Assembly: GCA_964499695.1 (NCBI GenBank) | Contig: CAZCMD010000001.1 | Location: 13,872-77,871, forward strand | DNA length: 64,000 nucleotides | DNA from: an uncultured Desulfatiglans sp. | Lineage (GTDB): Bacteria; Desulfobacterota; DSM-4660; Desulfatiglandales; HGW-15 | Reading direction: 5' to 3' | Shown: positions 28,062 to 58,846 of the stretch, one piece after another | Numbering within the stretch: the first letter of the stretch is position 1 | Layout of the letters: the number at the start of each line of letters is the position of its first letter | Made by a program: the position numbers and the translations under genes | Notes under the pieces: generated by a model | The model's input: only the letters and a program-made list of their open reading frames with translations | Told to the model about the DNA's origin: nothing | The model's database searches: none

Positions 28062-29948
28062 TCAGACTGCAGGGGATATACATGATTCAAGTTTGTTGAT
28101 AATATTGTTAATCTTAGATGAACCATCAATACCGCTATTATTAATTGAATTCCCTATTTCGATAAAAATATTTTTTAGATCGTTAAAATTATCAATTGTC
28201 CTGTCCCTGTCAAGACCGAGGATTTCCAGTATTTTATCACAATATTTAACATGTGATTCAATATCACCTGATTTAAGTTTTATTTCACACATTGTAAGAA
28301 GATTTGACAAATCATTACCCTTGATGGCAAGTGCCTTTTCCAGAAAAATCTGTGCATCTTCATATTTCCCTATTGAAAAAGTTATCTCAGCCAGGATACT
28401 CCATGCTTCAGGGCTGTCGGGTCTAGATTCTGCAGCCTTCATAAAACATTGCAGGGCATATTCCAGTTTTCCTGAAGCTAAATAATAATTACCTAGTTTC
28501 AGAAGATCAGAATATGAGGAGCCATTTATATTTTTTGATGATCTTAATATTTCATATGCCTTACCATAATTCTCCTTCCCGAGGTATAATGAAAAAAGAC
28601 GATTTATAACCGTTTCACCTGTCCCCCCTGTTTCAACTACTCTTTCAAGTGCTCTAATTTCATCATCTGTGGAACCGCATTTCTTACTGTACTCAGCCAG
28701 CATATAGTTTGCGCCATACTCTTCCGGAACTTCTTTTAATGTCAGATCAAGATACTCCTTTGCGCAATCCATATCACCTGATTCATCTATATGATAAACA
28801 ACTATACCCCATAATGTCTTCCATCTGGTTTCAGACATGTTGCAGGCCTTTTTATAGTATTCCCGCATCTGGGAAAAATTATTTGTTGCATGGTATGCAT
28901 GGCCTATTAATACTTCTATGGCAGGCCCTTCATTCATCTGAATATGAGGTGATAAAGCTTCTTCCGGGCTGTTTTTTAAAAAAAGTTCCATATGGTAAAG
29001 AAATAATTTTCCAAAATTAATTACATTATGCCATTCACCCATAACTCTCGCAACAAATGTTAGTATATAATATGAGTCCATATGACCGGGATATCTTTCG
29101 AGAGCCTCATATGCATATTTTTTCGCTTGCTCATATTGTTTCAGTGAAAAAAATGCAGATGATATAATAAAATAAGTCCATGAGAAAATCGGATTTTTTA
29201 AATGGTGAGGTTTCAATAGATTGATACTTTTTTTAGCTTCTTCTATTGCTTCCTCAAATCTTTTACTTGAAAGGTATGATGCGCTAAGATAATGTCTGTT
29301 AAGAGGATTATCAGGATCATTTTCAATTTCTTTTTCTAAGAGCATTGTTGTCCTTAAAAATTTTTGCTCAGCCTTTATTTCGTCAAGGTCATAACCATAG
29401 TGCCATAGTTCAATGTCAGAATAGAATGATTTGGTGACTCCGAATATTATTTCATGAATGTCCCGCTCATAATGAATTTTTCGATTATTCCTGAACAACC
29501 TACCAACATTATGAATTGACTTCGATTTTCCTTTCATGCTTGGTGAATTGATTTTTACTAAAATCAAATCTGCATCTTTTGCTTTTTTAATTGCCGGTAG
29601 TATTTTTTCACCACTTCCCTTCATAAGCTCTTCATCGGCATCTACCTGGAATATCCAGTCACCTGTAGCATATTCAAAATAATGGTTTCTTGCCTCGCTG
29701 AAACTGTCCTGCCATGGATGAAGGTAGACCTTGTCAGTATATTTTTTGGCTATGTTAAGAGAATTGTCCTGCGAACCGGTATCTATGATGATTATTTCAT
29801 GCGCAATATCTTTTACACTTTTGAGACAGTTTTCCAGAAACCGCTCTTCATCCTTCACAATAAGACACACTGAGATGGCGGGCCTCTGATTTGATATTTC
29901 TCTCCTTGCCTTAACCTTATTCGATATTTTTTTATTTTTTTTTGTCAT
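28062..29948 (-). CDS. GT2 glycosyltransferase fused to C-terminal TPR repeats (GmaR-like; candidate protein/flagellin glycosyltransferase)
   Basis: N-terminal ISVCLIVKDEERFL...IIIIDTGSQDNS...WQDSFSEARN...QVDADEEL (GT-A, DxD). The C-terminal ~400 aa are repeated TPR-like helices. It is the gene immediately adjacent to fliC. Confidence 0.8.
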   Translation of the reverse strand: MTKKNKKISNKVKARREISNQRPAISVCLIVKDEERFLENCLKSVKDIAHEIIIIDTGSQDNSLNIAKKYTDKVYLHPWQDSFSEARNHYFEYATGDWIFQVDADEELMKGSGEKILPAIKKAKDADLILVKINSPSMKGKSKSIHNVGRLFRNNRKIHYERDIHEIIFGVTKSFYSDIELWHYGYDLDEIKAEQKFLRTTMLLEKEIENDPDNPLNRHYLSASYLSSKRFEEAIEEAKKSINLLKPHHLKNPIFSWTYFIISSAFFSLKQYEQAKKYAYEALERYPGHMDSYYILTFVARVMGEWHNVINFGKLFLYHMELFLKNSPEEALSPHIQMNEGPAIEVLIGHAYHATNNFSQMREYYKKACNMSETRWKTLWGIVVYHIDESGDMDCAKEYLDLTLKEVPEEYGANYMLAEYSKKCGSTDDEIRALERVVETGGTGETVINRLFSLYLGKENYGKAYEILRSSKNINGSSYSDLLKLGNYYLASGKLEYALQCFMKAAESRPDSPEAWSILAEITFSIGKYEDAQIFLEKALAIKGNDLSNLLTMCEIKLKSGDIESHVKYCDKILEILGLDRDRTIDNFNDLKNIFIEIGNSINNSGIDGSSKINNIINKLESCISPAV

Positions 29949-30085
29949 TTTTTTATGGTTTTAAGAGGCTGCTTTTAAGCTAAATCTCATTGATTATTCC
30001 ATAATCAAAAACATCAATGACATCTCTATCTATGGATTAATAATGGGTTCTCTTCAAAAGAATCAAGTTATTCGAATCATATCTG

Positions 30086-30829
30086 TTAACTACTGATTTG
30101 CCTTGTACAAAAATAAATTTCGCCTGATGCTGGTGTTAATCCCATTTTGATAGCATCATTATAATTAACAAGATCGCCTGATTTTATGACTTTTACAGTA
30201 AATCCTGAACCACGAAGTCGGTCTGCGTAATCCGGGCCGTAACGTCTAACATGATCATCCTGACCAAATGCCTTTAATCGTTCTTCAGGAGCAATTATTG
30301 ATGCATCTTCGAATGTTTTTTTACTGGTAATCGGAACATTCAGTACAGCCCATCCGTTTGTTTTAAGAACTCGAAAGAGTTCTTTCATTGCCTTTTTATC
30401 ATCTAGGATATGTTCCAATACATGGCTGCAGTAAATTATATCAAATGATCTGTCAGGATATTTAATATCACAAATATCCATTTTAACCATGGCTCTGGGA
30501 TTAAATAGATCCGCAGTCAGGTAATCATTCCCTAAGCGTTCTTTTAGTATTGATATAAAACAAAACTCTGGCGCTATGTGAAGCATTTTTTTTGATTTTC
30601 CATCAAAAATATCAGTATTGTTTTGAAAGAACAACCATGCAAGGCGATGGCGTTCAAGAGCGCCACAGTTAGGACATTGTGCATCTTTACGCGGTACTAT
30701 CCCAAATGGCTTAAAATATTGTGATGACTCACCGCACACCGGGCAGTATTTCTCATTATCGCCAGTTAACCCTTCTGTTGTTCCAAGTGATTTGATTTCA
30801 CATTTTTTACTATAAGAACGATTACCCAT
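30086..30829 (-). CDS. class I SAM-dependent methyltransferase with an N-terminal zinc ribbon
   Basis: CPVCG...CPNCG, then MLHIAPE and IIYCSHVLEHILDDKKAMKELFRVLKTNGWAV (Methyltransf_11-like). Confidence 0.75.
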   Translation of the reverse strand: MGNRSYSKKCEIKSLGTTEGLTGDNEKYCPVCGESSQYFKPFGIVPRKDAQCPNCGALERHRLAWLFFQNNTDIFDGKSKKMLHIAPEFCFISILKERLGNDYLTADLFNPRAMVKMDICDIKYPDRSFDIIYCSHVLEHILDDKKAMKELFRVLKTNGWAVLNVPITSKKTFEDASIIAPEERLKAFGQDDHVRRYGPDYADRLRGSGFTVKVIKSGDLVNYNDAIKMGLTPASGEIYFCTRQISS

Positions 30830-30951
30830 TATATGCTCTCCTTTAGTGATGCTTAGAAATAATGAAAGCCTTTTTCTGATGCTACAAGCTTGAATCTAAA
30901 ATTAGTTTTCTTTAACTTAAATACATTAGACATCCTATTTTTTAACGGTGC

Positions 30952-31290
30952 TTACCGGGTAAATATTTTAAAACCAAGAAATATTAGATTTTTATTAATT
31001 TCAGCATGGTAAGGCTCTGAAGTCGATATAAGAACCAGAGCTTCTTTTCTGTGTTGCTTAAATCTCTCTATTGAGAGAATTGGCACATCTAATAGTTTGT
31101 TTACACGAATCCTGTTATCTTTTAGAGAATACTGATCCAATATGGCAGGAGAGTTATCAATTGATCCATCATTAACACATATAATTTCGATATCTTGCAT
31201 TGGTTGTGCGAGCACGCTGTCAAGGCATTGATATATATATTTTTCTGCATTGTATACGGGTATTACAACGCTAACTTTTGGATTGTTCAT
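30952..31290 (-). pseudogene. truncated duplicate of the N-terminus of the downstream-facing GT2 gene (remnant)
   Basis: The first ~63 aa (MNNPKVSVVIPVYNAEKYIYQCLDSV...VNDGSIDNSPAILDQYS) parallel 31316-32677 (MNNPKISVVIPVYNGEKYLCQCLDSV...). About 155 nt are ~80% identical by eye (31131-31290 vs 32517-32677). The DxD region and everything after it are missing. Confidence 0.55.
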
Positions 31291-31315
31291 ATTCTATTTT
31301 TCCCCATATTTGTAA

Positions 31316-32677
31316 TTATCCCTTGATCCAGATATTTAATTCATTATCACGCCAGACAATTTTGTTTCGTGGAATACCATTGTTCTGGAGAAACTTATGT
31401 ACATCCTTAATAATACCTTTATCTGCAATTGTAATAACAATGTAATCGATGTTGTGTTTAATAATTTCAGTTGGGCTGCTTATTTCATGGGTTTCATCGG
31501 ATAATCGTTTGTAATTTTTATCTACCCAGATACATGGCTTACCATAACCCATTTCATTCATTACAGAAACAGCAATTTTGCCAAAACCACCAGCACCATA
31601 TATCGCAATTTTAGAATCCTTTTTGAGTAAATCGAGAGGAAACTGCTGCTCATAGTAGGCTTTTTGAAGAATGAAAATCTTTTGATTTTCTGATTTTGAA
31701 TCTTTCAGTAATAATGGATATGTACCAGCTAAATTTTTCTGATAATAGTTATTCCAGCGTTCTGTTTGGATGATTTTGATGAAATCTGATGAATCAATTT
31801 CATCAATGAAACGTTGGGTTTCAAATCTTATATTTTCCCAATTGTGACCTGATTCTCTGGAACGGTTGTACCAATAAAACATTTCTTTCAGTTCAATTCC
31901 GAGAATCAAATAACGCAATGAATGAGGTAAAAAATGTGTCCTTTCATCTAAAAGCCGGTACACCTCAAACAAGCATTCGAAATGATTCAAACAACCGCTA
32001 AAAAGCGATGTGGGGATATTTTTACGATACATAAGAACATAGTTATCTGAAAAGACTACTCTGGCTGCTTTCATAAGAACCAAATAATAAAATGTGTGAT
32101 CCTCGAAAGTATGCATAAAATCAAATTGTATTTTATTGTTTTGAATAAATGATAGTTTATATAAGCCATTCCATGGGGGGTAGCAAATACCATCGGGTGT
32201 AAAAGCCTCTGGATAATTTACAAAATTTATCACTTTGCCAAAGTATTCTTTGGGAATTTGAGATAAATTGTACGCAGTTTCATGTAAATTTTCTCCAGTT
32301 ATGGTATCCATTGTATGTACACGAAATTTTAAAATGTCTGCATCATATCTTTTAGCCTCTTCATAAACTGCTTCGTAGGCGTTATCTACGAGAAAATCAT
32401 CAGAGTCCAGAAAGTGGATATATTCGCCAGTGGCTATCTTCATTCCATTGTTACGGGCTGGCCCAAGATGCTGATTGTTTTGATGAATGACTTTTATTTG
32501 TTTATATTTTCGAGAGTACTCATCCAATATGGCTGGAGAATTATCAGTAGAGCCGTCATTAACACCGATTATCTCTATGCCTTTCATTGGTTGCATAATG
32601 ACACTATCTAGGCATTGACAAAGGTATTTTTCTCCGTTGTATACGGGTATCACAACGCTAATCTTTGGGTTATTCAT
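31316..32677 (-). CDS. GT2 glycosyltransferase with a C-terminal GxGxxG Rossmann-like module
   Basis: VVIPVYNGEKYL...NDGSTDNS...FLDSDDF. The C-terminal ~115 aa (KIAIYGAGGFGK...ISSP...IVWRD) are shared with 32702-33934. Confidence 0.8.
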   Translation of the reverse strand: MNNPKISVVIPVYNGEKYLCQCLDSVIMQPMKGIEIIGVNDGSTDNSPAILDEYSRKYKQIKVIHQNNQHLGPARNNGMKIATGEYIHFLDSDDFLVDNAYEAVYEEAKRYDADILKFRVHTMDTITGENLHETAYNLSQIPKEYFGKVINFVNYPEAFTPDGICYPPWNGLYKLSFIQNNKIQFDFMHTFEDHTFYYLVLMKAARVVFSDNYVLMYRKNIPTSLFSGCLNHFECLFEVYRLLDERTHFLPHSLRYLILGIELKEMFYWYNRSRESGHNWENIRFETQRFIDEIDSSDFIKIIQTERWNNYYQKNLAGTYPLLLKDSKSENQKIFILQKAYYEQQFPLDLLKKDSKIAIYGAGGFGKIAVSVMNEMGYGKPCIWVDKNYKRLSDETHEISSPTEIIKHNIDYIVITIADKGIIKDVHKFLQNNGIPRNKIVWRDNELNIWIKG

Positions 32678-32701: not shown

Positions 32702-33934
32702 TTATTCTCTGATCCAAGCATTAGAATCGATATCACGCCATACAAGCTTATTAAATGGAACACCAATGTTCGTGAGGAACTCACGCACCTCTTTAATAAT
32801 ATTTTTATCTTCAATTGCAATAATAATAAAATCAAATTTATATTTTTCTATTAGATCTGGGCTGCTTATTTGATACCCATCAACAAATATACTTTTAAAA
32901 TTTCTGTCTGCCCAAACACAAGGTTTTCCATAACCTACTTTATACATTGCTGAAACAGTTCTTTTACCAAAAGCGCCAGCGCCATAAATTGCTATCTTAT
33001 TCTCCTTTTTAACTATACTGATAGGGAACTGCATCTCCCAGTAAAGTTTTTGACGAAGGAAAAATTGATCATTTACTTCTTTTGACTTTTCCGTTGATAG
33101 TTGACGAATACCAGCCAACCGCTTCATATAATAATGGTTCAAAGGGTTTCTTTGGATACTCTTATTGAAATCAGATATATTTATTTTACTTAAGGAATTT
33201 TTTATAATATCAAACTCCACATGATCCTGTACTTTTATATTATATTGTTCTTTTATTTGTTCCCAAATTTTTTTTCTTATCGGGGTTTCTTGAAGAAGAT
33301 CAATTTCTCGCTGACCTCCTTTCAATAAATTATGTGGATTAATACACGATATTGCATCAATTACTGCTACTTTTCCCTTAATATTTGGCCCTAAAACATT
33401 TAAAAACCAGTAATCAACCCCCCATCCTATTAAGACTGGATCATATACTTCCATGAATGCATCAAGCTTATCCTTCCGAAATAATGGACATGTAACCTCA
33501 ACAAAATTTGTATATCTCAAAAAGGTAAATGGGTTTGCCTTTGTTATAGGATGGCTGATTTTGCCTATGGGATCAAAGCTTGGTTGAAGCAACCACAGAT
33601 CATATTGTTCAAGAATTTTAAATAAATTACTAATACTGGCACTATCTATAATAATATCGTCATCAATTACTAAAATTCCTTTATAATGATTTAGAATATT
33701 TTTCCAGTGTTGGTAAACATAGTGTAGATTAGGAAATTTGCCCCCTTTTCTAGAAATGTAAAAATCGGTAATATCTTTATATCGGTTTTTCTCATCCCCA
33801 TAATAACATACCCATAAGTCAAAGCTTCGAGGTCCTTGTATCCAACGATATATTTGGGCATTATCTCCTGCCGAGGTAAAAACCAAAAACTTGTAATTGG
33901 GACTATCAATATTTTTAATCAGTAAGTTTGTCAT
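32702..33934 (-). CDS. DUF707-like putative glycosyltransferase with the same C-terminal GxGxxG module
   Basis: FTSAGD...FDLWVCYYG...VIDDDIII...LLQPSFDP...FVEVTCPLFRKD...GWGVDYW aligns by eye with plant and bacterial DUF707. C-terminal KIAIYGAGAFGK...ISSP...LVWRD. Confidence 0.6.
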   Translation of the reverse strand: MTNLLIKNIDSPNYKFLVFTSAGDNAQIYRWIQGPRSFDLWVCYYGDEKNRYKDITDFYISRKGGKFPNLHYVYQHWKNILNHYKGILVIDDDIIIDSASISNLFKILEQYDLWLLQPSFDPIGKISHPITKANPFTFLRYTNFVEVTCPLFRKDKLDAFMEVYDPVLIGWGVDYWFLNVLGPNIKGKVAVIDAISCINPHNLLKGGQREIDLLQETPIRKKIWEQIKEQYNIKVQDHVEFDIIKNSLSKINISDFNKSIQRNPLNHYYMKRLAGIRQLSTEKSKEVNDQFFLRQKLYWEMQFPISIVKKENKIAIYGAGAFGKRTVSAMYKVGYGKPCVWADRNFKSIFVDGYQISSPDLIEKYKFDFIIIAIEDKNIIKEVREFLTNIGVPFNKLVWRDIDSNAWIRE

Positions 33935-34123: not shown

Positions 34124-35401
34124 TTAATATCCGCTAAATAGTTTGTACCAAATCAGGTCAGCTATATTCCAGATTGCTGTCTCATCCAGACATCCATTAT
34201 CGTTGCATACTTCATCCGGAAAGATTGTGATAGCCTTGGGAAGGAATTTTGTGAGTTCGTCATATTGTTTTTTTAATATTTTTTCTCTGTGTGCCTCCAG
34301 TAAGCGGACAATAACTTGTTTATCAATCTTGAGTTTGCATAAATCGTTTTGAATGATAGCTTTATCAACATCAAGTAGATCCAAAAATGTATAGTTGTAT
34401 CTTTTTCTGCTATCCATCTTACAATCGGCATCTTTAAATAAAAAGGTCGATACTATTTTTCTTAAAGTGTCGCTGCCGCAAACGCAAACATTCAACCCGT
34501 TTGGATTTACCCAATTCGGAAAGTATTCCTTCATAACTAAAAAGAGGGATTGCTTAAGTGATTTTATATATTGTTTCTGACCGGACATAGCAATATCATC
34601 CATCCTTTTAATTGCAAAGCGTAACTGACTAAATGCCATCTTTTCTATATACATAGAATAAGCATCAAAAAGTTTGAGCCTTTTAAAATTTTCTACCATG
34701 TTTCTGATTGAATCTGGAATACTACCAAGTGCAGACAAATAGTTAATCGTGCTGTCCTTGCGGTTTCTGAAATAAAAATACATGGGCCGGTTTACACGGC
34801 AAACAGACCGGGAAAAAGCTACTAAAGCTGACGTTACCGGAAAATCTTCATATTTTTGCTTTGACTGTTTAAGACCACTTTTAATGTAAAGAGAACGGCG
34901 AAATACTTTTCCCCAAAGGAAAGCCCTCATACGGTTTATTGAATCCGGAAATTCTATTGGTATGATTTTTTTATATTCGGGTAATCTTATTTGTGAAATT
35001 GACTGTTTTTGATTATGGTTGTTTTCTTCGATGTAATATATGTCACAAACAGCAATATCCGCATTTAATTTGCTTATTGTTTTAATCATTTCCTCACAAT
35101 AATCTGTTGACCACCAGTCATCAGCATCTAAAAAAGTGATGTATTTTCCCTTCGCAAGTTTTACTCCAATATCCCTTGCGGGGCCCTGGCCTTCGTTGTC
35201 TTTATAGATATATTGAATTTTTTTTGAATTAGTTGATGTAAATTTTTTGCAAATTTCGCCGGAACTATCCGTTGATCCATCATCTATCAAAAATAACTCA
35301 TAATCTTGGAATGTCTGGGATGCAACAGAATTAAGGCATCTTTCAATATATGATTCAACATTGTAAACGGGAAGAATAATGCTTAAGATAGGGTGATTCA
35401 T
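34124..35401 (-). CDS. GT2 glycosyltransferase
   Basis: LSIILPVYNVESYIERCL...IDDGSTDSS...FLDADDWW. The ATG at 35401 is preferred over the TTG at 35410. Confidence 0.8.
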   Translation of the reverse strand: MNHPILSIILPVYNVESYIERCLNSVASQTFQDYELFLIDDGSTDSSGEICKKFTSTNSKKIQYIYKDNEGQGPARDIGVKLAKGKYITFLDADDWWSTDYCEEMIKTISKLNADIAVCDIYYIEENNHNQKQSISQIRLPEYKKIIPIEFPDSINRMRAFLWGKVFRRSLYIKSGLKQSKQKYEDFPVTSALVAFSRSVCRVNRPMYFYFRNRKDSTINYLSALGSIPDSIRNMVENFKRLKLFDAYSMYIEKMAFSQLRFAIKRMDDIAMSGQKQYIKSLKQSLFLVMKEYFPNWVNPNGLNVCVCGSDTLRKIVSTFLFKDADCKMDSRKRYNYTFLDLLDVDKAIIQNDLCKLKIDKQVIVRLLEAHREKILKKQYDELTKFLPKAITIFPDEVCNDNGCLDETAIWNIADLIWYKLFSGY

Positions 35402-35566
35402 ATTAATCAATCTATTTTATGAGATAATCTCATCGGAAAACATATAAGCTTTCATTAAAAAGTTTGCGTTTATTCTTGTCTAGTGGGAAAAATATTATTA
35501 AAAACAATTGATATCGATGGTCCCTTGATATCCTTTATTGTGGACATACTTAATTGCTGTTATGTT

Positions 35567-50571: not shown

Positions 50572-51915
50572 TCATGACCGAAGGATCTTAGCTAAATCAA
50601 AGGCGAGTTCCACCGCCTGTTCAGCATTCAGACGGGGGTCGCAGTTCGTCTGGTAATTAAGATACAGATCCTTATCGATAAGTTGTCGATTGCCGCCGAT
50701 ACATTCCGTAACATTGTCGCCTGTCAGCTCAAGATGAACACCGCCTCCAACTGTTTGCTCAGCCTGGTGGATCTGCCAGAACATTTTGATTTCCCCAAGT
50801 ATGTCTTCGTATTTTCTGGTCTTATGCGAAAGTCCATTGGTGTATGTGTTTCCGTGCATGGGATCACAGATCCATAGAACCCTGAATCCCTCTTTTTTAA
50901 ATTCCCGAAGCAGAGGTGGAAGAAATGATTCGATTTTTGTCGAACCGAAGCGTGTAATAAGCGTTAGACGTCCTACATCATTATCAGGGTTAAGCAATTG
51001 TATGAGACGTTTTATTTCGTCGATATTGTGATCCGGCCCGATTTTTACGCCGATGGGATTACCGACGCCTCTTAAAAATTCCACATGAGCCCCTTCAAGC
51101 TGGCGTGTCCGATCACCGATCCATACCATATGGGCGCTTGTGTCGTACCATTTGCCTGTAGTCGTATCGATTCTTGTCAGGGCCTCTTCGTATTCAAGCA
51201 GAAGGGCTTCATGAGAGGTGTACACCGTGATTTCGTTTAACTGGGGGGCCTTGATATCTATACCAATCGCGGTCATAAAGTTCGCGGCCTTTCTGATCCC
51301 GTTAACAAGCTCATCATATTTCTGGTTGGCAGGGAAGGAACCGAAACTGGCCTCGCTCCATGATTGAATTTTATCCAGCGCGGCGTAGCCGCCTCGGGTA
51401 AATGCCCTTACGAGATTAAGGGTTGCGGTGGACCGGAAATATCCCTCCAGTATCCTGCGAGGATCAGGTGTTCTCGCCTCCGGTGTCGGATCAGGGCTGT
51501 TAATCATATCTCCCCGATAACTGGGAATCTCGATGCCATCGACCGTTTCAGTGGTGGAAGAACGGGGTTTGGCATATTGCCCTGCCATTCTGCCGATTTT
51601 TATAATTTTCTTCTCTCCAGCGTAGGCAAGGATTATGGACATCTTAAGTATGACCTTCAGGAGATCATGGATACGCGGGCCGTTGCAACGTGAGAAATTT
51701 TCGGCGCAATCTCCAGCCTGAAGGACAAATGCCTTGCCTTCGATTACCTCAGCAAGCTGCTGCTTCAACGCTCGTGTTTCTCCGGCGAAGACCAGCGCAG
51801 GCAACTGAGAGAGCTTTTGCAGCATATCTTCGCAAACACGGGCATCAGGCCAGTTCGGCTGTTGTCGTATTGGAAAAGAACGCCAGCTTGATTTCGACCA
51901 TTCAGGAGTTCTCAT
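50572..51915 (-). CDS. class II 3-deoxy-7-phosphoheptulonate (DAHP) synthase
   Basis: Collinear by eye with M. tuberculosis/plant-type DAHPS: QQPNWPD, LQAGDCAE, GRMAGQYAKPRS, SYRGDMIN, WIGDRTRQ, CDPMHGN, CDPRLN. Confidence 0.9.
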   Translation of the reverse strand: MRTPEWSKSSWRSFPIRQQPNWPDARVCEDMLQKLSQLPALVFAGETRALKQQLAEVIEGKAFVLQAGDCAENFSRCNGPRIHDLLKVILKMSIILAYAGEKKIIKIGRMAGQYAKPRSSTTETVDGIEIPSYRGDMINSPDPTPEARTPDPRRILEGYFRSTATLNLVRAFTRGGYAALDKIQSWSEASFGSFPANQKYDELVNGIRKAANFMTAIGIDIKAPQLNEITVYTSHEALLLEYEEALTRIDTTTGKWYDTSAHMVWIGDRTRQLEGAHVEFLRGVGNPIGVKIGPDHNIDEIKRLIQLLNPDNDVGRLTLITRFGSTKIESFLPPLLREFKKEGFRVLWICDPMHGNTYTNGLSHKTRKYEDILGEIKMFWQIHQAEQTVGGGVHLELTGDNVTECIGGNRQLIDKDLYLNYQTNCDPRLNAEQAVELAFDLAKILRS

Positions 51916-51937: not shown

Positions 51938-53083
51938 CTAATTATAAACAGGCTGCCAGGTCATGGTATCTTTTGATTTGACCATGGATTCAATCATATG
52001 AATTCCTTCTAGCGCCAGTTCGATCCCAAACACATTTTCAGAGTGCCAATGCCCGGTTGCCCTGTACTGACAGAGACAATCGGCAATATCCATATAAAGA
52101 TTGGCAAATGCCTCTATAAAACCGGCAGGGTGCCCGGCCTTAAACCTGTTATACCGTCTCATATTTGCAACCTCCACATAAGAGGCTCTATCCATAATTA
52201 CCCTGCGCCCATCAGCGTATGATACTAGCAGTTCCTCAGGACGCATCTGATACCATTCAGCAGAGGCTTCTGAGCCATATATCCTGAGTCTTAATCCGTT
52301 TCTTTGACCCAACGCTGACTTGCTGAACCATATCTGGCCCTGAATGCCTTCCGAATAGCGACAAAGACATGTGACGTTATCAATAACCTGTGAAAACCAT
52401 CCGTAACTGTTCTGATCGGCAATAACCTCAAGGGGTTTTTGTCCCACCAGATAGTGAATCAGCTGATGAAGATGAGACCCCAGGTCAAGGTGAATCACGG
52501 GTACATGTCCGTCGGTAAGCCTCCATGACTGGGGCGCCGGCTTATTCCCATGTGCATCCACCCTGATATAGCCTTCCTGAGGCATTTCAGCCTGAAAGTG
52601 CAGTATCCTGCCAAGCATACCCTTTTGGATCATTTTTTTCAGTTCACGCACCATCGGGTACCCCGAGTAATTATAGGTCACTGCAAGGAAACTATTTCTT
52701 TGACTGCAAAGGTCCAGGACTGTTTTGGCATCGGCGCTGTTTGTAACCAGGGTTTTCTCACAGATTACCGGGTAACCCGCCTCCAGACAGGTCATGACAA
52801 TCTCATAATGGGATGGGGTCGGTGTCAGAATGGTGATAGCATCCAGACGGCCTTTTTCTTTTTTCAACAGTTCCTGCCAGTTGTCATATGCCCTGTCAGA
52901 GGCTACCCCGTAAGCCTGTGCTGTCTCAAGATTCCGCTTTTCATCTGTACTGAAACAACCGGCCTTGACAGCCCAGCGATTATCCATGGTAGAGGATACG
53001 GCATGTGCATATCCAACCGCGGAATATAAAGAACCACCTATAAAACCTAGTGACATTGGTGAGGACACTGTCGGCTTATCCAT
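51938..53083 (-). CDS. Gfo/Idh/MocA-family NAD(P)-dependent oxidoreductase
   Basis: LGFIGGS...ILTPTPSHYEIVMTCLEAGYPVICEKTL. GGGAG RBS. Confidence 0.8.
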   Translation of the reverse strand: MDKPTVSSPMSLGFIGGSLYSAVGYAHAVSSTMDNRWAVKAGCFSTDEKRNLETAQAYGVASDRAYDNWQELLKKEKGRLDAITILTPTPSHYEIVMTCLEAGYPVICEKTLVTNSADAKTVLDLCSQRNSFLAVTYNYSGYPMVRELKKMIQKGMLGRILHFQAEMPQEGYIRVDAHGNKPAPQSWRLTDGHVPVIHLDLGSHLHQLIHYLVGQKPLEVIADQNSYGWFSQVIDNVTCLCRYSEGIQGQIWFSKSALGQRNGLRLRIYGSEASAEWYQMRPEELLVSYADGRRVIMDRASYVEVANMRRYNRFKAGHPAGFIEAFANLYMDIADCLCQYRATGHWHSENVFGIELALEGIHMIESMVKSKDTMTWQPVYN

Positions 53084-53101: not shown

Positions 53102-54262
53102 TCATTGAGTTTGGTTAATCGTATACAGGTTTCTGTTGAGAGTCTTTTTGTATAAATCCAGTAGCTCTTTCTCTGAATTATTCCTTGAAAACAATAACGC
53201 AATCCTGCTAAAAGGACTGGCTTTAATCATATCGCCCGCTAAGCTTATGGGGACCATCTTTTCTATCAGAATTGGAAAATGGAACTGGATTGATCCCAAA
53301 ACACCTTCAACAGGCTGAGAAATGGTATGCCTCATTATCCAGGCTTGCTTCATAGTTACTTTTTCAAATGTGAAATTTTGTTTTACAAAGGATCTGGCAT
53401 ATGTTTCTGCATAGCTAAATCCGGTTGAGAGTTCGATCAATTGACTGTACAGATCGCCGGGACAGCGTCTTGTCACCTCAATCAACCAGAATGATTCCCC
53501 GTTTTTTATGAATTGCGTGTGGACAAGCCCATCAACCATCTTCAACTCTTTTGAAAGTAAGGTAATACTTTTTCGTATGCGATTCAGCATTTCGGAAGGA
53601 AAGTCATAAATCACACGACTGGTGTCAACCACAAATGGGTTTGCCGTACTGTTCTCTTCGACAATAAAGTCTGCTACTATTCTGCCGCTGGTAATAAACG
53701 CTGAATGGCTGTATAGCTGACCTTCAACATATTCTTCGATTATGCATGTCTTTAAACGGGAGAATTCCTTTGCACGGTTGATGGCTGATTGCAGAGCCCG
53801 TTTTTCCGGCCTTTTAAGGACAGTCATGCCGTGACCGCTGTAAGCATCAATAGGCTTGACAATCAAAGGCCTCATTTCGTCCGAATGCTCGCCCGAGATT
53901 AGAGCCGGAACCGGAAGGCCGATCTGTTTTGCGAATCTTCGAAATTTATCTTTTTTATTGATAATGTCGGTTGTCTCCGGTGTATCCAGGCCATGATAGC
54001 TCCCTTTTGAGTTAAGCTCTGCGCACACCTGGTATGAACGGTCATTACACCCGGGGACGATGTAATCAATATTTAATTTTGCTATCAATTCTTCGGTTTG
54101 TTTAACATCGGAATAATCCATATTGATATAATTTCTGACTGATTTAGCCAGAAAATCCTTTGGGTTTCCGCCAATAACAAAGACCTCGAAACCGGACTTG
54201 ATCAAATAATTATAGATCGGCGCTGATGAAAAATTGGTGTCAACTAAAAGTACTTTATTCAT
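53102..54262 (-). CDS. ATP-grasp domain protein
   Basis: NKKDKFRRFAKQIGLPVP...LIVKPIDAYSGHGMTVL...IIEEYVEG... pattern of ATP-grasp ligases. Confidence 0.7.
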   Translation of the reverse strand: MNKVLLVDTNFSSAPIYNYLIKSGFEVFVIGGNPKDFLAKSVRNYINMDYSDVKQTEELIAKLNIDYIVPGCNDRSYQVCAELNSKGSYHGLDTPETTDIINKKDKFRRFAKQIGLPVPALISGEHSDEMRPLIVKPIDAYSGHGMTVLKRPEKRALQSAINRAKEFSRLKTCIIEEYVEGQLYSHSAFITSGRIVADFIVEENSTANPFVVDTSRVIYDFPSEMLNRIRKSITLLSKELKMVDGLVHTQFIKNGESFWLIEVTRRCPGDLYSQLIELSTGFSYAETYARSFVKQNFTFEKVTMKQAWIMRHTISQPVEGVLGSIQFHFPILIEKMVPISLAGDMIKASPFSRIALLFSRNNSEKELLDLYKKTLNRNLYTINQTQ

Positions 54263-54298: not shown

Positions 54299-55372
54299 TT
54301 ATTGAGCTTTCGCATACAATACCGTCTCTTCATAATGCTTTGTAAAGTGATCTAAATAAAATTTATATCCAAGATTTAAGTTGTTTATCAAGTGAACTAT
54401 GTTAGCAAAATCATTCATGTTATGATAAATGGAGATGGCTAGCTCCGGTTTAAATCTTCTCAATGTTTGTTCGGCGCCTCTCAGTGCATTTTGTTCCGCC
54501 CCTTCTATATCCATTTTTATAAGGTCAATTTTGGCTAATTGCTCCTGATCAACGAAATCGTCTATGGTTATCGTATATATGTTATTCTCGTGTCCTTCAA
54601 ACGGTGTTAACGACACCTTACTGCCTGGACCATTATCCCGATAAAACATCCTGATACCTGATTTATCCCATAACGGATTTTCAACTATTTTTATTATATT
54701 TTTAAAATGAGGATTAAGATTAATATTTTTGTAAGCTACCTGTAGATTATTCGGAATAAACTCAAAGGAATATACTTTTCCATTCCCTTTTACCTTATTA
54801 GCAAAAAATAATGTTGTATCGCCCCAACAGGCTCCACAATCTATAACAATATTGCCGTTCTTCGCACCAATGATTATTTGATCATCCGTTATATATTCAT
54901 AGGGCTTCAGTAAAAATTGACTGAATATGGTTCCAGGCGCAGTATATAGCTTAACCGGCAAATCAAGAGGCGACAAGTCCGCGAAAAAAAGATTTTTTTT
55001 CATGGAGCTTACATAATTAACTTCTACCTTATCTTCGGGATCTATCAATGATGACAACTCATCAATTTTTTTAGAATAATCCGTTGCCGAAAGGGGCAGT
55101 CGTATTTTCCTATGACCAAGAACCCTGAATGCGAGTAAATGGAGCAGGAGCTTTTTTGATCGAAAATCATCGAGGAGATAAAAAAAGGATTCAAACTCAT
55201 CCAGGAAATTTTCTATTTCAAAAAGATTTTCCTGCCCATCAACTATTTCTCTTTCCGGTTCCCCGAATCTGGAAAAAGAAAAATTATCTTTAAAATTATT
55301 TTTCCAGGCTTTAGCAAGGGTCTGTAAAAATGCATGGAAGAAGAAATTGTCTTTAGTATCGCCATCTGCCAT
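54299..55372 (-). CDS. FkbM-family methyltransferase
   Basis: VIDCGACWGDTTLFFA...SFEFIPNN...IKMDIEGAEQNALRGAEQTLRRFKPELAISIYHN. Confidence 0.8.
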   Translation of the reverse strand: MADGDTKDNFFFHAFLQTLAKAWKNNFKDNFSFSRFGEPEREIVDGQENLFEIENFLDEFESFFYLLDDFRSKKLLLHLLAFRVLGHRKIRLPLSATDYSKKIDELSSLIDPEDKVEVNYVSSMKKNLFFADLSPLDLPVKLYTAPGTIFSQFLLKPYEYITDDQIIIGAKNGNIVIDCGACWGDTTLFFANKVKGNGKVYSFEFIPNNLQVAYKNINLNPHFKNIIKIVENPLWDKSGIRMFYRDNGPGSKVSLTPFEGHENNIYTITIDDFVDQEQLAKIDLIKMDIEGAEQNALRGAEQTLRRFKPELAISIYHNMNDFANIVHLINNLNLGYKFYLDHFTKHYEETVLYAKAQ

Positions 55373-55373: not shown

Positions 55374-56540
55374 TTATTCTTCTCCAGCGATTATATTTAG
55401 GATTCTTTTTATGTCTGATTTGTCGATCTCAGGATAAATCGGCAGACAGAGAATTTTCTCGGTAACGGTTTCCGCTACGTGCAGAATGCCGGGTTGTGCC
55501 GATTCAAGGCCCCTGTATGTTGGGAACTGGCTTATAAGAGGATAAAAATACCGTCTTGAAAAGATGTTCTGTTTCTTTAATGCGTTATAAATATCATCCC
55601 TTGATTTTCCGAAGGTGTTTTCATCAATTACGATCGGGAAATACTGATAATTATGCCTTACTTCAGGAATGTCTTCAAAGAATGAAATTCCGGGCAGGTC
55701 TCTGAGGCGCTTACTGTAATATTCCGCTATCTCTTTTCTTTTCTGAATGGACTGGTCAATATATTTTAATTGTAGTATGCCCAAGGCGGCCTGGAACTCA
55801 TTCATCTTTGCGTTTATTCCGGGTGCTACTACAGTAGTCTCGCCGGCAAAGCCGAAGTTCTTTAAAAAATCTATCCTTTTTTTCGTTGTCTCGTCATGGC
55901 AGATTATTGCGCCTCCCTCGAAGGTCGTGAATACCTTTGTCGCGTGAAAGCTTAAAACTGAAAGGTCGCCGAAATTTAAAACTGAGTTGCCGTTAATAGT
56001 TACACCAAAGGCATGGCAGGCGTCATAGATAACCTTTAAACCATAAGTCCCGGCTATCTCCTGGATAGCCTCAACATGACACGGATTACCATATACATGA
56101 ACGGGAAGGATAGCTGTTGTTTTAGGGGTAATAGCCGCCTCGATCTTTTTGGGGTCCAGATTGTATGTCACAGGGTCAATATCACAGAACACCGGTTTGA
56201 TGCCGTTCCAGTTAAGGGCATGGGTTGTGGCTACAAAACTAAAAGGGGTTGTTATGACTTCACCAGTTATTCTAAGTGTCTGAAGAGCGCTTATAAGTGC
56301 CAGTGTGCCATTGGAGAAAAGACAGACATATTTAACTCCAAGATATTCAGCCAGTTCTTTTTCAAAACGCTCATGATATGGGCCCTTATTGGTGAGTTGT
56401 TTTGATTCCCAGATTTGTTCAAGGTACTCATAAAATTCTTCAAGCGGTGGAAGAAAAGGTCTAGTAACATATATCGGTTCTTTATTATCAATATTATCTG
56501 CAATCACATCATCTGATATTTGTGGTGTATTCGTTGTCAT
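55374..56540 (-). CDS. DegT/DnrJ/EryC1-family sugar aminotransferase
   Basis: FSNGTLALISAL...PFSFVATTHA...SFHATKVFTTFEGGAI (PLP-lysine). Confidence 0.88.
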   Translation of the reverse strand: MTTNTPQISDDVIADNIDNKEPIYVTRPFLPPLEEFYEYLEQIWESKQLTNKGPYHERFEKELAEYLGVKYVCLFSNGTLALISALQTLRITGEVITTPFSFVATTHALNWNGIKPVFCDIDPVTYNLDPKKIEAAITPKTTAILPVHVYGNPCHVEAIQEIAGTYGLKVIYDACHAFGVTINGNSVLNFGDLSVLSFHATKVFTTFEGGAIICHDETTKKRIDFLKNFGFAGETTVVAPGINAKMNEFQAALGILQLKYIDQSIQKRKEIAEYYSKRLRDLPGISFFEDIPEVRHNYQYFPIVIDENTFGKSRDDIYNALKKQNIFSRRYFYPLISQFPTYRGLESAQPGILHVAETVTEKILCLPIYPEIDKSDIKRILNIIAGEE

Positions 56541-56561
56541 ATTTTTCCGTTATAAAAGTTA

Positions 56562-57203
56562 TTAATTGTTTGTGAATTGTCTTTCATAGTTATGTTTACA
56601 GATATTGCTATGTTTATTAATCTCTTCATGCCACGACAGGGTTGATATCAACTGACCAACCCAATATTTTATAATTTGCATATGACAGAGACTGGCATTT
56701 AAACGGTTTTCAGCAGGGATATAAAAATTTATTGAGCCGAGGGTTTTTAAAGTGTTGTTAGAGTTCATTGCAGAGAGAGTGCAGACATTGTTACCGGTTC
56801 TTTGTGCTTCCATTGCAGCATTGATGATATTCCTTGATTCACCTGAACTGCTTATTGCTACAAGCATATCCCCCGTGACCATTTTTTTTCTTAGGGGTTC
56901 AGCAAATATTTCATCATACCCTGAATCTCTCGCTACCGCTGTTAACAGTGAAAAATTATTAAATGATTCAGTATCTATTCCGGTGTTTTTTGCAAGGGTT
57001 GATGCGGTGTCACTGGCGATTGAAGCGCTGCTGCCATTGCCTATAAAATATATGGTTTTTTTCCTCTCAAACACCCCAAGGGCATAATTATGCAATTGTT
57101 TAAAAGCAATGTCAGTATCTATAATATTTCCGCTTATATCACTCACGGACATTGAAAGAAGGTGCTCTTTAAGATGATTTATATGTGTTTTCCAGTTAGT
57201 CAT
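56562..57203 (-). CDS. SIS-domain sugar-phosphate isomerase (GmhA/DiaA-like)
   Basis: IYFIGNGSSASIASDTA...LVAISSSGESRNII. 213 aa. ATGA overlap with the upstream MerR-like gene. Confidence 0.75.
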   Translation of the reverse strand: MTNWKTHINHLKEHLLSMSVSDISGNIIDTDIAFKQLHNYALGVFERKKTIYFIGNGSSASIASDTASTLAKNTGIDTESFNNFSLLTAVARDSGYDEIFAEPLRKKMVTGDMLVAISSSGESRNIINAAMEAQRTGNNVCTLSAMNSNNTLKTLGSINFYIPAENRLNASLCHMQIIKYWVGQLISTLSWHEEINKHSNICKHNYERQFTNN

Positions 57204-57544
57204 TTCATACCTAAAAATTTTGTTACTTCCATTTTAACCAGGTCAGAGATCCTTTTGGTGAGCATATCTATCTCACTTTCAGGTGACTTCGTAATACTGC
57301 TGCCATTATTGAAATACTCCTTTACCTGTGAGATACTCTTGCCTGCATTTCTCAGGTTTTTTATCTTTTCAAATACCGGGATATGAGATTCTGTATACCT
57401 TCGCTGTCCACCCGGAGTTCTTGAAGTCACAATTATTCCTTTCAGCTCCTTTTCCCAGAATCGTAAAGTTGGTTTTGGAACATCTAATATTTCGCTCAGT
57501 TGTTGAATGGTAAGCTGAGGTGTGTCTTGGTCTATATTGCTCAT
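57200..57544 (-). CDS. small MerR-family HTH protein
   Basis: LTIQQLSEILDVPKPTLRFWEKE...RTPGGQRRY, a MerR-type winged HTH. 114 aa. Confidence 0.7.
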   Translation of the reverse strand: MSNIDQDTPQLTIQQLSEILDVPKPTLRFWEKELKGIIVTSRTPGGQRRYTESHIPVFEKIKNLRNAGKSISQVKEYFNNGSSITKSPESEIDMLTKRISDLVKMEVTKFLGMK

Positions 57545-57599
57545 AAAATGAACCCTTTAAGTTTATGAATAAATGTTTTTTATGGGGAAGAATGGGTTA

Positions 57600-57616
57600 C
57601 TGGTAAAATATACCAG
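57600..57616. promoter_or_regulatory. perfect palindrome CTGGTA-N5-TACCAG upstream of the MerR-like gene (possible operator)
   Basis: Read directly from the sequence. Lies 56-72 nt upstream of the ATG at 57544 and just downstream of the galE stop. Confidence 0.25.
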
Positions 57617-57649
57617 CGTGTTCATTTATTGGATAATTTGAATAACAGT

Positions 57650-58642
57650 CTATTTATAACCGGTTGGATTGGATTTATGCCATCGCCATGCGGTTTCAAC
57701 GATACTTTCGAGATCGGTGTATTGAGGTTTCCAACCTAAATCACTAATAATCCTCTCGCTTGAACCTATCAACTTTGCGGGATCTCCAGCTCTTTTATTA
57801 TCTATCTTAAACGGGATGAATTTTCCGGTTATTTTTTCGGTTGTCTCTATTACCTGTTTAACTGAATAGCCTTCTCCATTTCCCAGGTTAAAAATAACTC
57901 CCTTTTTAACATCTGATAGTTTTTCCATGGCTAAAAAATGTGCCTGTGCCAAATCTGTTACATGAATGTAATCCCTTATGCATGTCCCGTCTTTTGTAGG
58001 GTAATTGTCACCGAATATACTGATATAATCTCTCTGACCCAGAGCAGTCTGGATTGCCAGCGGTATAATATGTGTTTCAGGGTTGTGGTCTTCGCCTATT
58101 TCACCATCAGGGTCTGCGCCAGCGGCATTAAAATATCTCAAGGCAATATAATTGAGACCATAAGCTTTATGATAATCATTCAGGATTTGTTCCACCATTA
58201 ATTTACTTCTTCCATAGGGATTTATAGGGCACTGAGGATGTTCTTCTGTTATTGGAATTTCAGATGGTTCACCATATGTTGCACAGGAAGAAGAGAAAAT
58301 CAAATTATTAACATTATTTTTTCTCATGGATTCAAGAAGAGAAATGGTCGCCGCAACATTATTAAAATAATATTTGCCCGGATCACTTATTGATTCACCC
58401 ACATATGCAAATGCAGCAAAGTGCATTACTATAAAGATATTATTTTCTTTAAAAATCGTGGATAAAAGCGAATGGTCTTCAATAGAACCTTTTATAAAGG
58501 TGCCCCATTTCACTGCTTCAATATGTCCAAAGACCAGGTTATCAAGTATAATTGGATTATATCCTCTTTGATAAAGGTATTTGGACATATGGGACCCGAT
58601 ATAGCCTGCCCCTCCAACAATCAGAACGTCAACTTTTTTCAT
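57650..58642 (-). CDS. galE: UDP-glucose 4-epimerase
   Basis: VGGAGYIGSH, SSSCATYG and YGRSK (YxxxK), with GalE-like length and C-terminus. Confidence 0.88.
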   Translation of the reverse strand: MKKVDVLIVGGAGYIGSHMSKYLYQRGYNPIILDNLVFGHIEAVKWGTFIKGSIEDHSLLSTIFKENNIFIVMHFAAFAYVGESISDPGKYYFNNVAATISLLESMRKNNVNNLIFSSSCATYGEPSEIPITEEHPQCPINPYGRSKLMVEQILNDYHKAYGLNYIALRYFNAAGADPDGEIGEDHNPETHIIPLAIQTALGQRDYISIFGDNYPTKDGTCIRDYIHVTDLAQAHFLAMEKLSDVKKGVIFNLGNGEGYSVKQVIETTEKITGKFIPFKIDNKRAGDPAKLIGSSERIISDLGWKPQYTDLESIVETAWRWHKSNPTGYK

Positions 58643-58830
58643 AATAATTATTTTTGTTTTTAAAGGTTTATTCCCAGATTACAGGGCAGGCTCCGCCCCT
58701 TTGGTTTACATACCCTGGTAATGTCTTAAATATTTGGTTTCCAAAATTGATAAATCCTTTAGGGAAAGAAGAGGCTTTATTACCTCATCCCATGAAGAAT
58801 TAACTTAAGCTTTAACTTTTACTTGAAACT

Positions 58831-58846
58831 TGCAATATGAGTGCCA
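58831..58846 (-). promoter_or_regulatory. consensus sigma54 promoter in front of galE and the glycosylation island
   Basis: Reverse strand reads TGGCACTCATATTGCA (TGGCAC-N5-TTGCA), about 190 nt upstream of the galE ATG. Confidence 0.7.

Follow-up and report, generated by a model that had tools for sequence, protein, structure and literature searches.

Flagellin glycans influence filament assembly, motility, phage recognition, and immune recognition, and to our knowledge almost all characterized flagellin glycosylation systems come from pathogens. Flagellin glycosylation islands that lack nonulosonate and Maf genes are well documented, with examples in Listeria (GmaR), Clostridioides difficile, Pseudomonas aeruginosa, and Geobacillus. 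The locus described here lies in a 64,000-nucleotide stretch (hereafter the window) of contig CAZCMD010000001.1 from an uncultured Desulfatiglans sp., in which 24 genes run from galE toward the flagellin gene fliC. The locus is likely to be a flagellin glycosylation island, large and mosaic in makeup, of the GmaR type, in which a family 2 glycosyltransferase (GT2) is fused to tetratricopeptide repeats (TPR), and the window carries no nonulosonate genes. Such a system would be of a known kind, and what takes it beyond the described examples is a doubled set of cytidine diphosphate (CDP)-donor/transferase cassettes and a recurrent module that contains a 3-deoxy-D-arabino-heptulosonate 7-phosphate (DAHP) synthase.

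Known Systems Related to the Locus

In Listeria monocytogenes, GmaR has its GT2 domain, with a DxD-type motif, at the N-terminus and TPR repeats behind it, and its gene is linked to flagellin; the window enzyme closest to fliC shares these features. GmaR adds a single N-acetylglucosamine (GlcNAc) and doubles as an anti-repressor, whereas the 24-gene island headed by the window enzyme predicts a glycan that is long and decorated, and no MogR-type partner is seen here.

The C. difficile type A locus (fgtA with ftaABCD, cd0240-cd0244) and the P. aeruginosa b-type genes PA1088-1091 share a logic with the window, in which a flagellin glycosyltransferase is combined with a cytidylyltransferase that produces a CDP-linked small molecule, a TagF-like phosphodiester transfer, and a methyltransferase (PMC10714395; bioRxiv 10.64898/2026.02.12.704994). 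A pathway model has been put forward for the phospho-substituent on the C. difficile flagellin glycan (PMC10714395), and, in a reconstitution in vitro, the TagF-like FtaD moves N-methyl-phosphothreonine from its CDP donor onto GlcNAc bound to flagellin (bioRxiv 10.64898/2026.02.12.704994). The reported ambiguity of CD0244, which resembles both TagF and uridine diphosphate (UDP)-GlcNAc 2-epimerases (PMC10714395), is mirrored by an 829-residue protein of the window. Unlike in C. difficile, the window cytidylyltransferases are of the IspD type, one of them fused to a kinase that stands where C. difficile has the phosphoserine-phosphatase-like FtaA; the window has two cassettes, and the island is six times larger. 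Neither a phosphoserine-phosphatase-like FtaA/HAD family member nor an FtaB-type CDP-threonine nucleotidyltransferase is found in the island, and, given also its IspD-type cytidylyltransferases, the locus would work like FtaABCD without being a member of that group. The window substituents are probably polyols or sugars, and not threonine as in C. difficile. A preliminary description of this DNA had treated the island as a departure from the norm; this is overstated, as flagellin islands free of nonulosonate and Maf genes are documented and TagF-like phosphodiester modification has been shown in vitro.

In Geobacillus, flagellin glycosylation islands extend over 13.4-30.4 kb, contain 11-23 genes, and have a GC content ~10% below the genome mean (PMC5109656). 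Like these and the P. aeruginosa a-type and Enterobacteriaceae islands, the window island lies beside a flagellin gene, is low in GC, and differs in content between relatives (PMC5109656; PMC4875605). Many of those islands carry pseudaminic-acid genes, whereas the window has none and adds the DAHP-synthase module and CDP-alditol cassettes. The Maf-dependent nonulosonate systems of Campylobacter, Helicobacter, and Aeromonas are similar in that flagellin is O-glycosylated in the cytoplasm before export by the products of a cluster beside the flagellin genes; in contrast, the window lacks NeuB/PseI/LegI, Maf, and a cytidine monophosphate (CMP)-nonulosonate synthetase, and a relative (L001) has NeuB at this position.

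Two pathways outside flagellar biology are also instructive. In the synthesis of CDP-ribitol and wall teichoic acid (TarI, TarJ or Bcs1, and TarL/TagF), a cytidylyltransferase and a reductase yield a CDP-alditol, as predicted for the window, and the LicA/LicC/LicD phosphocholine pathway follows the same sequence of kinase, cytidylyltransferase, and phosphotransferase as the kinase-fused enzyme of the window, a relative of which is paired with LicD in L088. Unlike these pathways, the window shows no lipid-linked primer, TarGH export, or membrane anchoring, and the acceptor is presumably a protein-bound glycan.

A GmaR-Like Glycosyltransferase Linked to Flagellin

Among solved structures, the GT2-TPR protein is closest to Listeria GmaR (E 1.3e-35, residues 21-211), with SunS, a peptide S-glycosyltransferase, in second place. 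Its gene is the last of the island and ends 309 nt upstream of fliC, which is followed by fliD, fliS, and two flaG genes. The flagellin itself, the presumed acceptor, is rich in hydroxylated residues in its central segment (residues 101-185, 27% Ser+Thr).

Relatives of the GT2-TPR protein occur mostly in metagenome bins of Deltaproteobacteria, Thermodesulfobacteriota, and Syntrophales. The order GT2-TPR, flagellin, fliD is found in all four closer relatives with readable contigs, and fliS comes after fliD in the two contigs that reach far enough. A scan of GTDB representatives, one genome per species, returned 80 loci with a best match of 40%, to which the contigs of three relatives with available DNA were added. 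Among these 83 loci, a flagellin gene lies within 10 kb of the GT2-TPR homologue in at least 35; among the 16 in which both the GT2 and the TPR parts are matched, it lies less than 3 kb away in 13, and two of the three exceptions sit on contigs that end within ~2 kb of the gene. The 16 full-match loci span Thermodesulfobacteriota, Planctomycetota, Ignavibacteriales, and others, and matches to the GT2 part only extend to Bacillota as well. By homology and synteny, the protein is thus a candidate flagellin-directed protein glycosyltransferase, and the surrounding genes most probably form a flagellin glycosylation island, as the preliminary description had proposed. Most relatives are ~1030-1090 residues long with two GT2 domains (as in L001 and L007), and a single-module form of ~630 residues is found in the window, in L002, where it occurs as two tandem copies, and in a few others.

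The comparison of related genomes called for earlier reveals variable cargo at the same position. In L001, whose transferase is 53% identical to that of the window and whose genome measures 4.1 Mb, the position is occupied by NeuB, a UDP-GlcNAc 2-epimerase-family gene, pyruvyl transferases, and a thiamine pyrophosphate enzyme; L003 has three glycosyltransferase/methyltransferase genes bounded by flgM; and L007 has only a TPR-GT4-methyltransferase fusion and a double GT2-TPR gene. When nine island proteins and FliC were compared by cluster look-up, almost all proved to be singletons at 90% identity.

Missing Nonulosonate, Lipid-Carrier, and Membrane Functions

Families were assigned by Pfam and NCBIfam searches of the window open reading frames (ORFs), with bit scores judged against family cut-offs. 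Among window ORFs of at least 90-100 residues, no NeuB/PseI/LegI (PF03102), Maf (PF01973), or CMP-nonulosonate synthetase is found, which bears out the absence noted earlier. The island aminotransferase of the DegT family (55374-56540) reaches 253 bits with PseC (cut-off 423) and 213 with LegC (cut-off 420), and the short-chain dehydrogenases/reductases (SDRs) reach at most 104 with LegB (cut-off 475) and 30 with PseB (cut-off 408).

The island also contains no Pfam family of a flippase (Wzx), polymerase (Wzy), priming phosphoglycosyltransferase, ABC exporter, or oligosaccharyltransferase, and a TarGH-type exporter and lipid-linked primer enzymes are absent from it by Pfam and hydrophobicity analysis. 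No convincing transmembrane segment is seen in the 24 island proteins, in which three marginal windows (1.62-1.74) fall within Rossmann, beta-helix, and kinase cores; applied to the flanks, the same test detects two segments in a histidine kinase and a signal-like segment in a binding protein. A purely soluble enzyme set fits assembly on a cytoplasmic protein acceptor, and, because the island encodes no membrane protein, the S-layer, pilin, or lipopolysaccharide targets considered in the preliminary description are unlikely.

Two Predicted Cassettes for CDP-Activated Donors

The first cassette (47744-49384 and 49381-50526) consists of a fusion of an IspD-type cytidylyltransferase with a kinase and a TagF-like transferase. 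The 310-residue C-terminal extension of the fusion carries an HGDxxxxN...D motif, and a profile built from 24 members of the fusion family hits methylthioribose kinase (2olc, E 2e-5), with weaker matches to Rio2 and fructosamine-3-kinase; these features identify the extension as a protein-kinase-like small-molecule kinase. The family is rare, with ~26 full-length relatives, and its genes adjoin a TagF-like gene in L084, L085, L086, and L087, and LicD in L088 and L089. The arrangement fits a sequence in which a small molecule X would be phosphorylated, activated as CDP-X, and transferred as phospho-X.

The second cassette combines a TarI-like cytidylyltransferase, an SDR (38929-39981) that is the probable reductase partner of the cytidylyltransferase in the synthesis of a CDP-alditol, and the 829-residue protein. 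The latter scores 18.8 bits with Glyphos_transf, below the Pfam cut-off of 22.1. Its AlphaFold2 model (predicted local distance difference test score, pLDDT, 83) comprises a helical N-terminus, an alpha/beta region, and a beta-propeller that resembles the seven-bladed propellers of the virginiamycin B lyase type (template modeling score ~0.76) and dominates the fold search with the full model. A model of the N-terminal domain (pLDDT 78) adopts a GT-B fold, for which UDP-GlcNAc 2-epimerases are retrieved first (E 8e-8) and TagF (3l7i) at E 3e-6; a sequence profile of the family searched against solved structures did not find TagF. Of the two TagF-like transferases counted earlier, one is firm (142.9 bits), and the other is a sub-threshold match with a GT-B fold. 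The family of the 829-residue protein has ~3800 homologues, mainly in Clostridia bins, many of which carry a Glyphos_transf domain or name; its members are annotated variously as WD40 proteins, streptogramin lyases, and CDP-glycerol glycerophosphotransferases. The propeller might recognize a protein acceptor.

The second cassette recurs beside flagellin. In L065 (Sporosarcina sp. ACRSM), flagellin is followed in turn by a GmaR-like GT2, a protein homologous to the N-terminal half of the 829-residue protein (36% identical), IspD (51%), SDR (44%), and a second flagellin-like segment. In L090, an Oscillospiraceae contig, an 842-residue homologue of the 829-residue protein is part of a flagellin-linked island that also holds giant GT2/TPR/GT4/methyltransferase fusions, a SIS protein, a GHMP kinase, an SDR, nucleotidyltransferases, and FkbM. 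By analogy with the described pathways, the two CDP-donor cassettes predict phosphodiester substituents, and the enzymes expected for such substituents are encoded beside the many methyltransferases, in keeping with the chemistry suggested in the preliminary description.

The DAHP-Synthase Module

Upstream of the first cassette lie genes for an aminotransferase, an FkbM methyltransferase, an ATP-grasp ligase, a GFO/IDH/MocA oxidoreductase, and a class II DAHP synthase. The aminotransferase (55374-56540) is nearest to the DesI-type 4-aminotransferases, with 2po3 as its best solved relative, and the search of solved structures with the ATP-grasp protein gave no informative or specific relative. 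Two related contigs (L084 and L085) have the order DegT, AroB, a 48-residue ORF, ATP-grasp, GFO, DAHP synthase, TagF-like, IspD-kinase, LbH, and GT2, with proteins 59-87% identical to those of the window. Their AroB is genuine (373 bits against a cut-off of 305) and occupies the position of the window FkbM.

A metagenome scan with the ATP-grasp protein yielded 20 contigs at 54-81% identity (L092-L111). DegT is found upstream of ATP-grasp in 15 of these contigs and AroB in a further three, and no upstream homologue was detected in the remaining two; where enough downstream sequence is available, GFO usually comes after ATP-grasp, and DAHP synthase follows after FkbM or GT2 genes. AroB is present in the relatives L084, L095, and L109, and in some contigs it stands between DegT and ATP-grasp. 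Within the window, the class II DAHP synthase is the only member of a shikimate or aminoshikimate set, with no dehydroquinate synthase and no dehydratase seen. A literature search found no description of the module and no paper that combines DAHP synthase with ATP-grasp in a glycan context.

It is tentatively proposed, with some way to go before it could be called likely, that the DegT/ATP-grasp/GFO/DAHP-synthase module, joined by AroB in some relatives, makes an undescribed glycan building block, and that flagellin and other glycoconjugates carry a substituent derived from the entry to the shikimate pathway. One possible product is an N-acylated amino sugar, for which the ATP-grasp ligase would use an acid derived from DAHP or dehydroquinate, and another is a seven-carbon 3-deoxy-ulosonic acid used like 3-deoxy-D-manno-oct-2-ulosonic acid (Kdo) or sialic acid. 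Equally possible is a WbpB/WbpE/WbpD-like route to a 3-amino sugar from GFO, DegT, and LbH. An aminoshikimate pathway of the kanosamine or 3-amino-5-hydroxybenzoic acid (AHBA) kind, built from GFO, DegT, SIS, and DAHP synthase, was considered and is retained only within this tentative proposal; the aminotransferase is nearer to the DesI type than to NtdA or AHBA synthase, and the DAHP synthase has the appearance of a common type II enzyme of full length.

At the left edge of the window, rmlA and rmlB of the dTDP-glucose pathway both score above their equivalog cut-offs, and a second DegT aminotransferase adjoins an iron-type alcohol dehydrogenase (rml and DegT genes at 298-2244 and 5714-8136). 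Although they lie outside the island, these genes may provide further sugar precursors, and rmlA and rmlB could supply the substrate of the DegT aminotransferase.

Organization of the Island

The 24 ORFs of the island span 28062-58642, all on the minus strand, and 95.8% of this span is coding (Table 1). The co-directional arrangement and the tight junctions listed earlier are confirmed: 4-nt overlaps occur at 57200-57203, 49381-49384, and 47744-47747, an ATGA overlap occurs at 41884-41887 if the ATG at 41887 is the start, and gaps of 1-3 nt separate the genes at 55372/55374, 43095/43098, and 39981/39985. The overlap at 49381-49384 requires a GTG start, and the public gene call for the protein begins 14 codons later. 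Across the island, seven junctions overlap or have at most 5 nt, eight have 18-45 nt, one has 69 nt, and seven exceed 100 nt; six of these last lie in the fliC-proximal half, and one follows galE. Strand uniformity is a regional property, since all genes at 19219-62724 (43 kb), including neighbors outside the island, are on the minus strand and the GC skew is negative; it is therefore no evidence of an operon. The remainder of the window holds housekeeping genes, a chemotaxis cluster, fliD, fliS, and the two flaG genes, with a hybrid histidine kinase, a binding protein, and lexA on the right side. The FlaG paralogues lie in tandem downstream of fliS, at 22864-23244 and 23461-23859.

The domains counted earlier are found: four GT2 and a GT2 fragment, two GT4, DUF707, two FkbM, two IspD-like, SDR, LbH, kinase, and DAHP synthase domains. 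The methyltransferase count stands for the two FkbM domains and three firm class I domains, and the fourth class I domain, a Methyltransf_24-like region in the middle of the 1282-residue fusion, is sub-threshold (E 0.019). A module of ~160 residues with a PglD_N/C2185-like Rossmann-type domain forms the C-termini of 31316-32677 and 32702-33934, which are 51% identical over it; a related domain forms the N-terminus of the FkbM protein 40814-41917, and in L090 and L091 the domain is found together with FkbM and pyruvyl-transferase proteins.

Table 1. Genes and transcription signals of the island and of the adjoining fliC region, in the direction of transcription.
Feature	Position	Strand	Basis or remark
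Weak hairpin downstream of histidine-kinase gene	58977..59012	-	-11.4 kcal/mol, z -2.7, U-poor tail
σ54-type -24/-12 element TGGCACtcataTTGCA	58831..58846	-	Sole perfect TGGCAC-N5-TTGCW match in window
galE, UDP-glucose 4-epimerase	57650..58642	-	TIGR01179, 462 bits (cut-off 262)
MerR-family transcription regulator	57200..57544	-	Pfam MerR_1, 61.8 bits; 4-nt overlap with next gene
SIS-domain sugar-phosphate isomerase, GmhA-like	56562..57203	-	GmhA below cut-off
DegT-family sugar aminotransferase, DesI-like	55374..56540	-	Pfam 374 bits; DesI 345 bits
FkbM-family methyltransferase	54299..55372	-	Pfam/NCBIfam; AroB at equivalent position in L084/L095
ATP-grasp carboxylate-amine ligase	53102..54262	-	Pfam ATP-grasp_4
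GFO/IDH/MocA oxidoreductase	51938..53083	-	Nearest named relatives are sugar 3-dehydrogenases
Class II DAHP synthase	50572..51915	-	Pfam 647 bits; NCBIfam 618 bits (cut-off 614.7); solved relative 5uxm, 527 bits
TagF-like CDP-alcohol phosphotransferase	49381..50526	-	Pfam Glyphos_transf, 142.9 bits
IspD-type cytidylyltransferase + protein-kinase-like small-molecule kinase fusion	47744..49384	-	IspD, 70 bits
Hexapeptide-repeat left-handed beta-helix (LbH) acyltransferase	47016..47747	-	Pfam/NCBIfam
1282-residue fusion: GT2, GT4, weak Methyltransf_24-like, Methyltransf_11	43098..46946	-	Pfam
GT4 glycosyltransferase	41884..43095	-	Pfam
FkbM methyltransferase with N-terminal PglD_N-like domain	40814..41917	-	Likely start ATG at 41887
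TarI-like polyol-phosphate cytidylyltransferase	39985..40704	-	NCBIfam ribitol-5-P cytidylyltransferase, 163.4 bits (cut-off 166)
Extended SDR	38929..39981	-	Pfam; 44% identical homologue adjoins IspD gene in L065
829-residue protein: helical N-terminus, GT-B domain (TagF- or 2-epimerase-like), 7-bladed beta-propeller	36395..38884	-	Models, fold searches
Class I methyltransferase	35567..36229	-	Pfam
GT2 glycosyltransferase	34124..35410	-	Pfam
DUF707-like protein with C-terminal PglD_N/C2185-like module	32702..33934	-	Pfam
GT2 glycosyltransferase with C-terminal PglD_N/C2185-like module	31316..32677	-	Pfam
Truncated GT2 duplicate (remnant), 112 residues	30952..31290	-	Residues 1-63 75% identical to neighboring GT2 N-terminus
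Class I methyltransferase	30086..30829	-	Pfam
GT2-TPR protein glycosyltransferase, candidate flagellin O-glycosyltransferase (GmaR-like)	28062..29948	-	Solved-relative search, synteny
σ28-like promoter of fliC, TAAAGTTT-N12-CCCGATAA	27899..27926	-	Motif match
fliC, short flagellin (252 residues), presumed acceptor	26994..27752	-	Pfam Flagellin_N + Flagellin_C
Strong intrinsic terminator after fliC	26899..26956	-	-49.4 kcal/mol, z -9.6

The GC content of the island (37.8%) is below that of its flanks (41.6% and 43.1%) and is itself mosaic, with 35.8% in 28062-46946 and 43.5% in 47016-54262. This mosaic raises the possibility that only the low-GC proximal block (28062 to ~46946), with its glycosyltransferase, methyltransferase, and CDP-alditol genes, serves flagellin, and that the higher-GC distal part from galE to LbH (47016-58642), which holds the DAHP-synthase module, is a separately acquired and separately transcribed σ54 unit whose product, a nucleotide- or CDP-activated compound, is used elsewhere too. 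Apart from the GC difference, such a division is favored by the location of six of the seven gaps above 100 nt in the proximal part, by the retention of the distal cassette as a unit in L084 and L085 (73-87% identity), by the occurrence of its core in ~20 metagenome contigs without nearby flagellin genes, and by the σ54 element, which stands in front of the distal end only. However, the blocks are separated by just 69 nt (46947-47015) with neither a terminator-like structure nor a divergent gene, in L084 the cassette leads straight on to a gene homologous to the first GT2 of the 1282-residue fusion, and the distal block lacks export and lipid-carrier functions of its own, and the combined proposal of a flagellin-serving proximal block and an independent distal unit with a shared product is rather unlikely.

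Promoters and Transcription

The perfect TGGCAC-N5-TTGCA element reported earlier in front of the island is present: TGGCACtcataTTGCA, with GG at -24 and GC at -12, lies in an intergenic region of 388 nt, is oriented toward galE, and is 189 nt upstream of the galE start. One perfect 11-base match was found in the window against ~0.03 expected by chance by our estimate, and five one-mismatch matches were found against 2.15 expected. Rfam and tRNA scans of the window gave no match, with no riboswitch or leader RNA that accounts for the 189-nt leader. A small hairpin with a T-rich tail (58771-58786, minus strand), also unmatched in Rfam, lies within this leader between the σ54 element and galE.

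Similar elements recur near flagellar genes. In L007, a Desulfobacterales bin, two glycosylation genes precede flagellin, fliD, and fliS, and an intergenic region of 970 nt holds a σ54-like TGGCACccataTTGCT, 47 nt ahead of the first glycosylation gene. In the window, a one-mismatch element, TGGCAAATAtcTTGCA (26845-26860, minus strand), lies 112 nt upstream of fliD, and the element is conserved at the corresponding site upstream of fliD in the relatives L001 (16182-16197) and L002 (4798-4813), which suggests that fliD-fliS may be σ54-dependent in the lineage. These recurrences make a functional σ54 promoter at 58846-58831 plausible and do not fix the extent of its transcript. Another one-mismatch σ54-like element, TGGCAAGCATATTGCA (18628-18643, plus strand), lies ~105 nt upstream of an ORF of 156 residues (18748-19218), which has no family match and is located after the chemotaxis cluster.

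The terminator-like hairpin described earlier upstream of the σ54 element (~58977-59012) exists, but it is weak, and it is absent from the output of the terminator scan; it is a possible terminator insulating the island. At the other end, the σ28 promoter of fliC is recovered as a σ28-like element at 27926-27899, whose N12 spacing is one base above the σ28 consensus. Inside the island, the scan detects no terminator comparable to that after fliC, and because both σ70 and terminator matches occur there at chance frequency, internal transcription units are not definable from these scans. The earlier proposal of a single σ54 transcript of 24 genes reading into fliC is not supported, in view of the seven gaps above 100 nt, the internal MerR regulator, and the presence of neighbors from outside the island on the same strand.

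The island might also lie outside the flagellar σ54 tier, under σ70-type or internal promoters or the embedded MerR regulator, with the σ54 element a chance or non-functional match. This proposal draws on the distance of the site from the start codon (189 nt), on the position of the MerR-family regulator as the second gene of the island, and on the lack of any activator binding sites or enhancer-binding protein gene identified nearby; σ70-like matches, at chance frequency, neither support nor exclude it. Against it stand the rarity of a perfect match in the right position and orientation and the one-mismatch elements upstream of fliD and of the L007 glycosylation genes, which leave it a doubtful explanation.

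Proposed Pathway and Its Weighing

From the gene content, homologies, synteny, absences, and promoter motifs described above, we infer the following acceptor, glycan chemistry, order of steps, and regulation. As all 24 products are soluble, the glycan would be built in the cytoplasm on Ser/Thr residues of flagellin before flagellar type III export, and the fliC-proximal GT2-TPR enzyme would add the first sugar. The chain would then be extended by three further GT2 enzymes, two GT4 enzymes, and the DUF707-like enzyme, and decorated by five or six methyltransferase domains and an acyltransferase. Phosphodiester substituents may be attached from CDP-activated donors by two routes, one through the kinase-cytidylyltransferase fusion and the TagF-like transferase and one through the TarI-like cytidylyltransferase, the SDR reductase, and the GT-B/propeller protein. 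Unusual sugar or acyl units for the glycan would come from GalE, the DesI-like aminotransferase, and the ATP-grasp/GFO/DAHP-synthase module. The σ54 promoter probably couples the expression of at least the distal part to the flagellar regulon, and fliC would be transcribed from its own σ28 promoter.

Several observations weigh against this scheme or parts of it. The seven gaps above 100 nt, the truncated GT2, and the mosaic GC content speak against one simple operon, and the σ54 site is so far a motif match. The second putative TagF-like protein has, in its model, a GT-B fold for which 2-epimerases outscore TagF. The nonulosonate and Maf searches covered the window, and such genes could lie elsewhere in the genome. 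The kinase-cytidylyltransferase fusion is also found in Wzx-type clusters (L086 and L088), and the DAHP-synthase module adjoins a membrane GT87-like glycosyltransferase in L098, which indicates that the module is not flagellin-specific.

These last two observations, together with the fact that polysaccharide loci typically carry TagF-like, IspD-like, GT2, GT4, and FkbM genes, would fit an island that wholly or mostly builds a non-flagellar glycoconjugate (a teichoic-acid-like polymer, another surface polysaccharide, or a glycan of an S-layer or pilin) and lies beside fliC by chance or through shared regulation, but this is very improbable given the missing flippase, polymerase, priming, export, oligosaccharyltransferase, and membrane functions, the GmaR-like enzyme next to fliC from a family tightly linked to flagellin across phyla, and the occurrence of the same cassettes within flagellin-flanked Firmicutes islands.

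Implications

The locus extends the GmaR-type, non-sialic system of flagellin glycosylation to an uncultured Thermodesulfobacteriota lineage, and one genomic position in its relatives holds quite different sugar pathways. Two enzyme sets are brought to attention, namely the kinase-cytidylyltransferase fusion with its TagF-like transferase and the DAHP-synthase module that recurs in environmental genomes. If the DAHP-synthase module makes no new substituent, the island is a large, ordinary, hypervariable flagellin glycosylation island. If it does make a new sugar or acyl substituent, entry enzymes of the aromatic pathway would be linked to glycan decoration, and the module and the two CDP-donor cassettes would together represent new chemistry for the post-glycosylation modification of flagellin.

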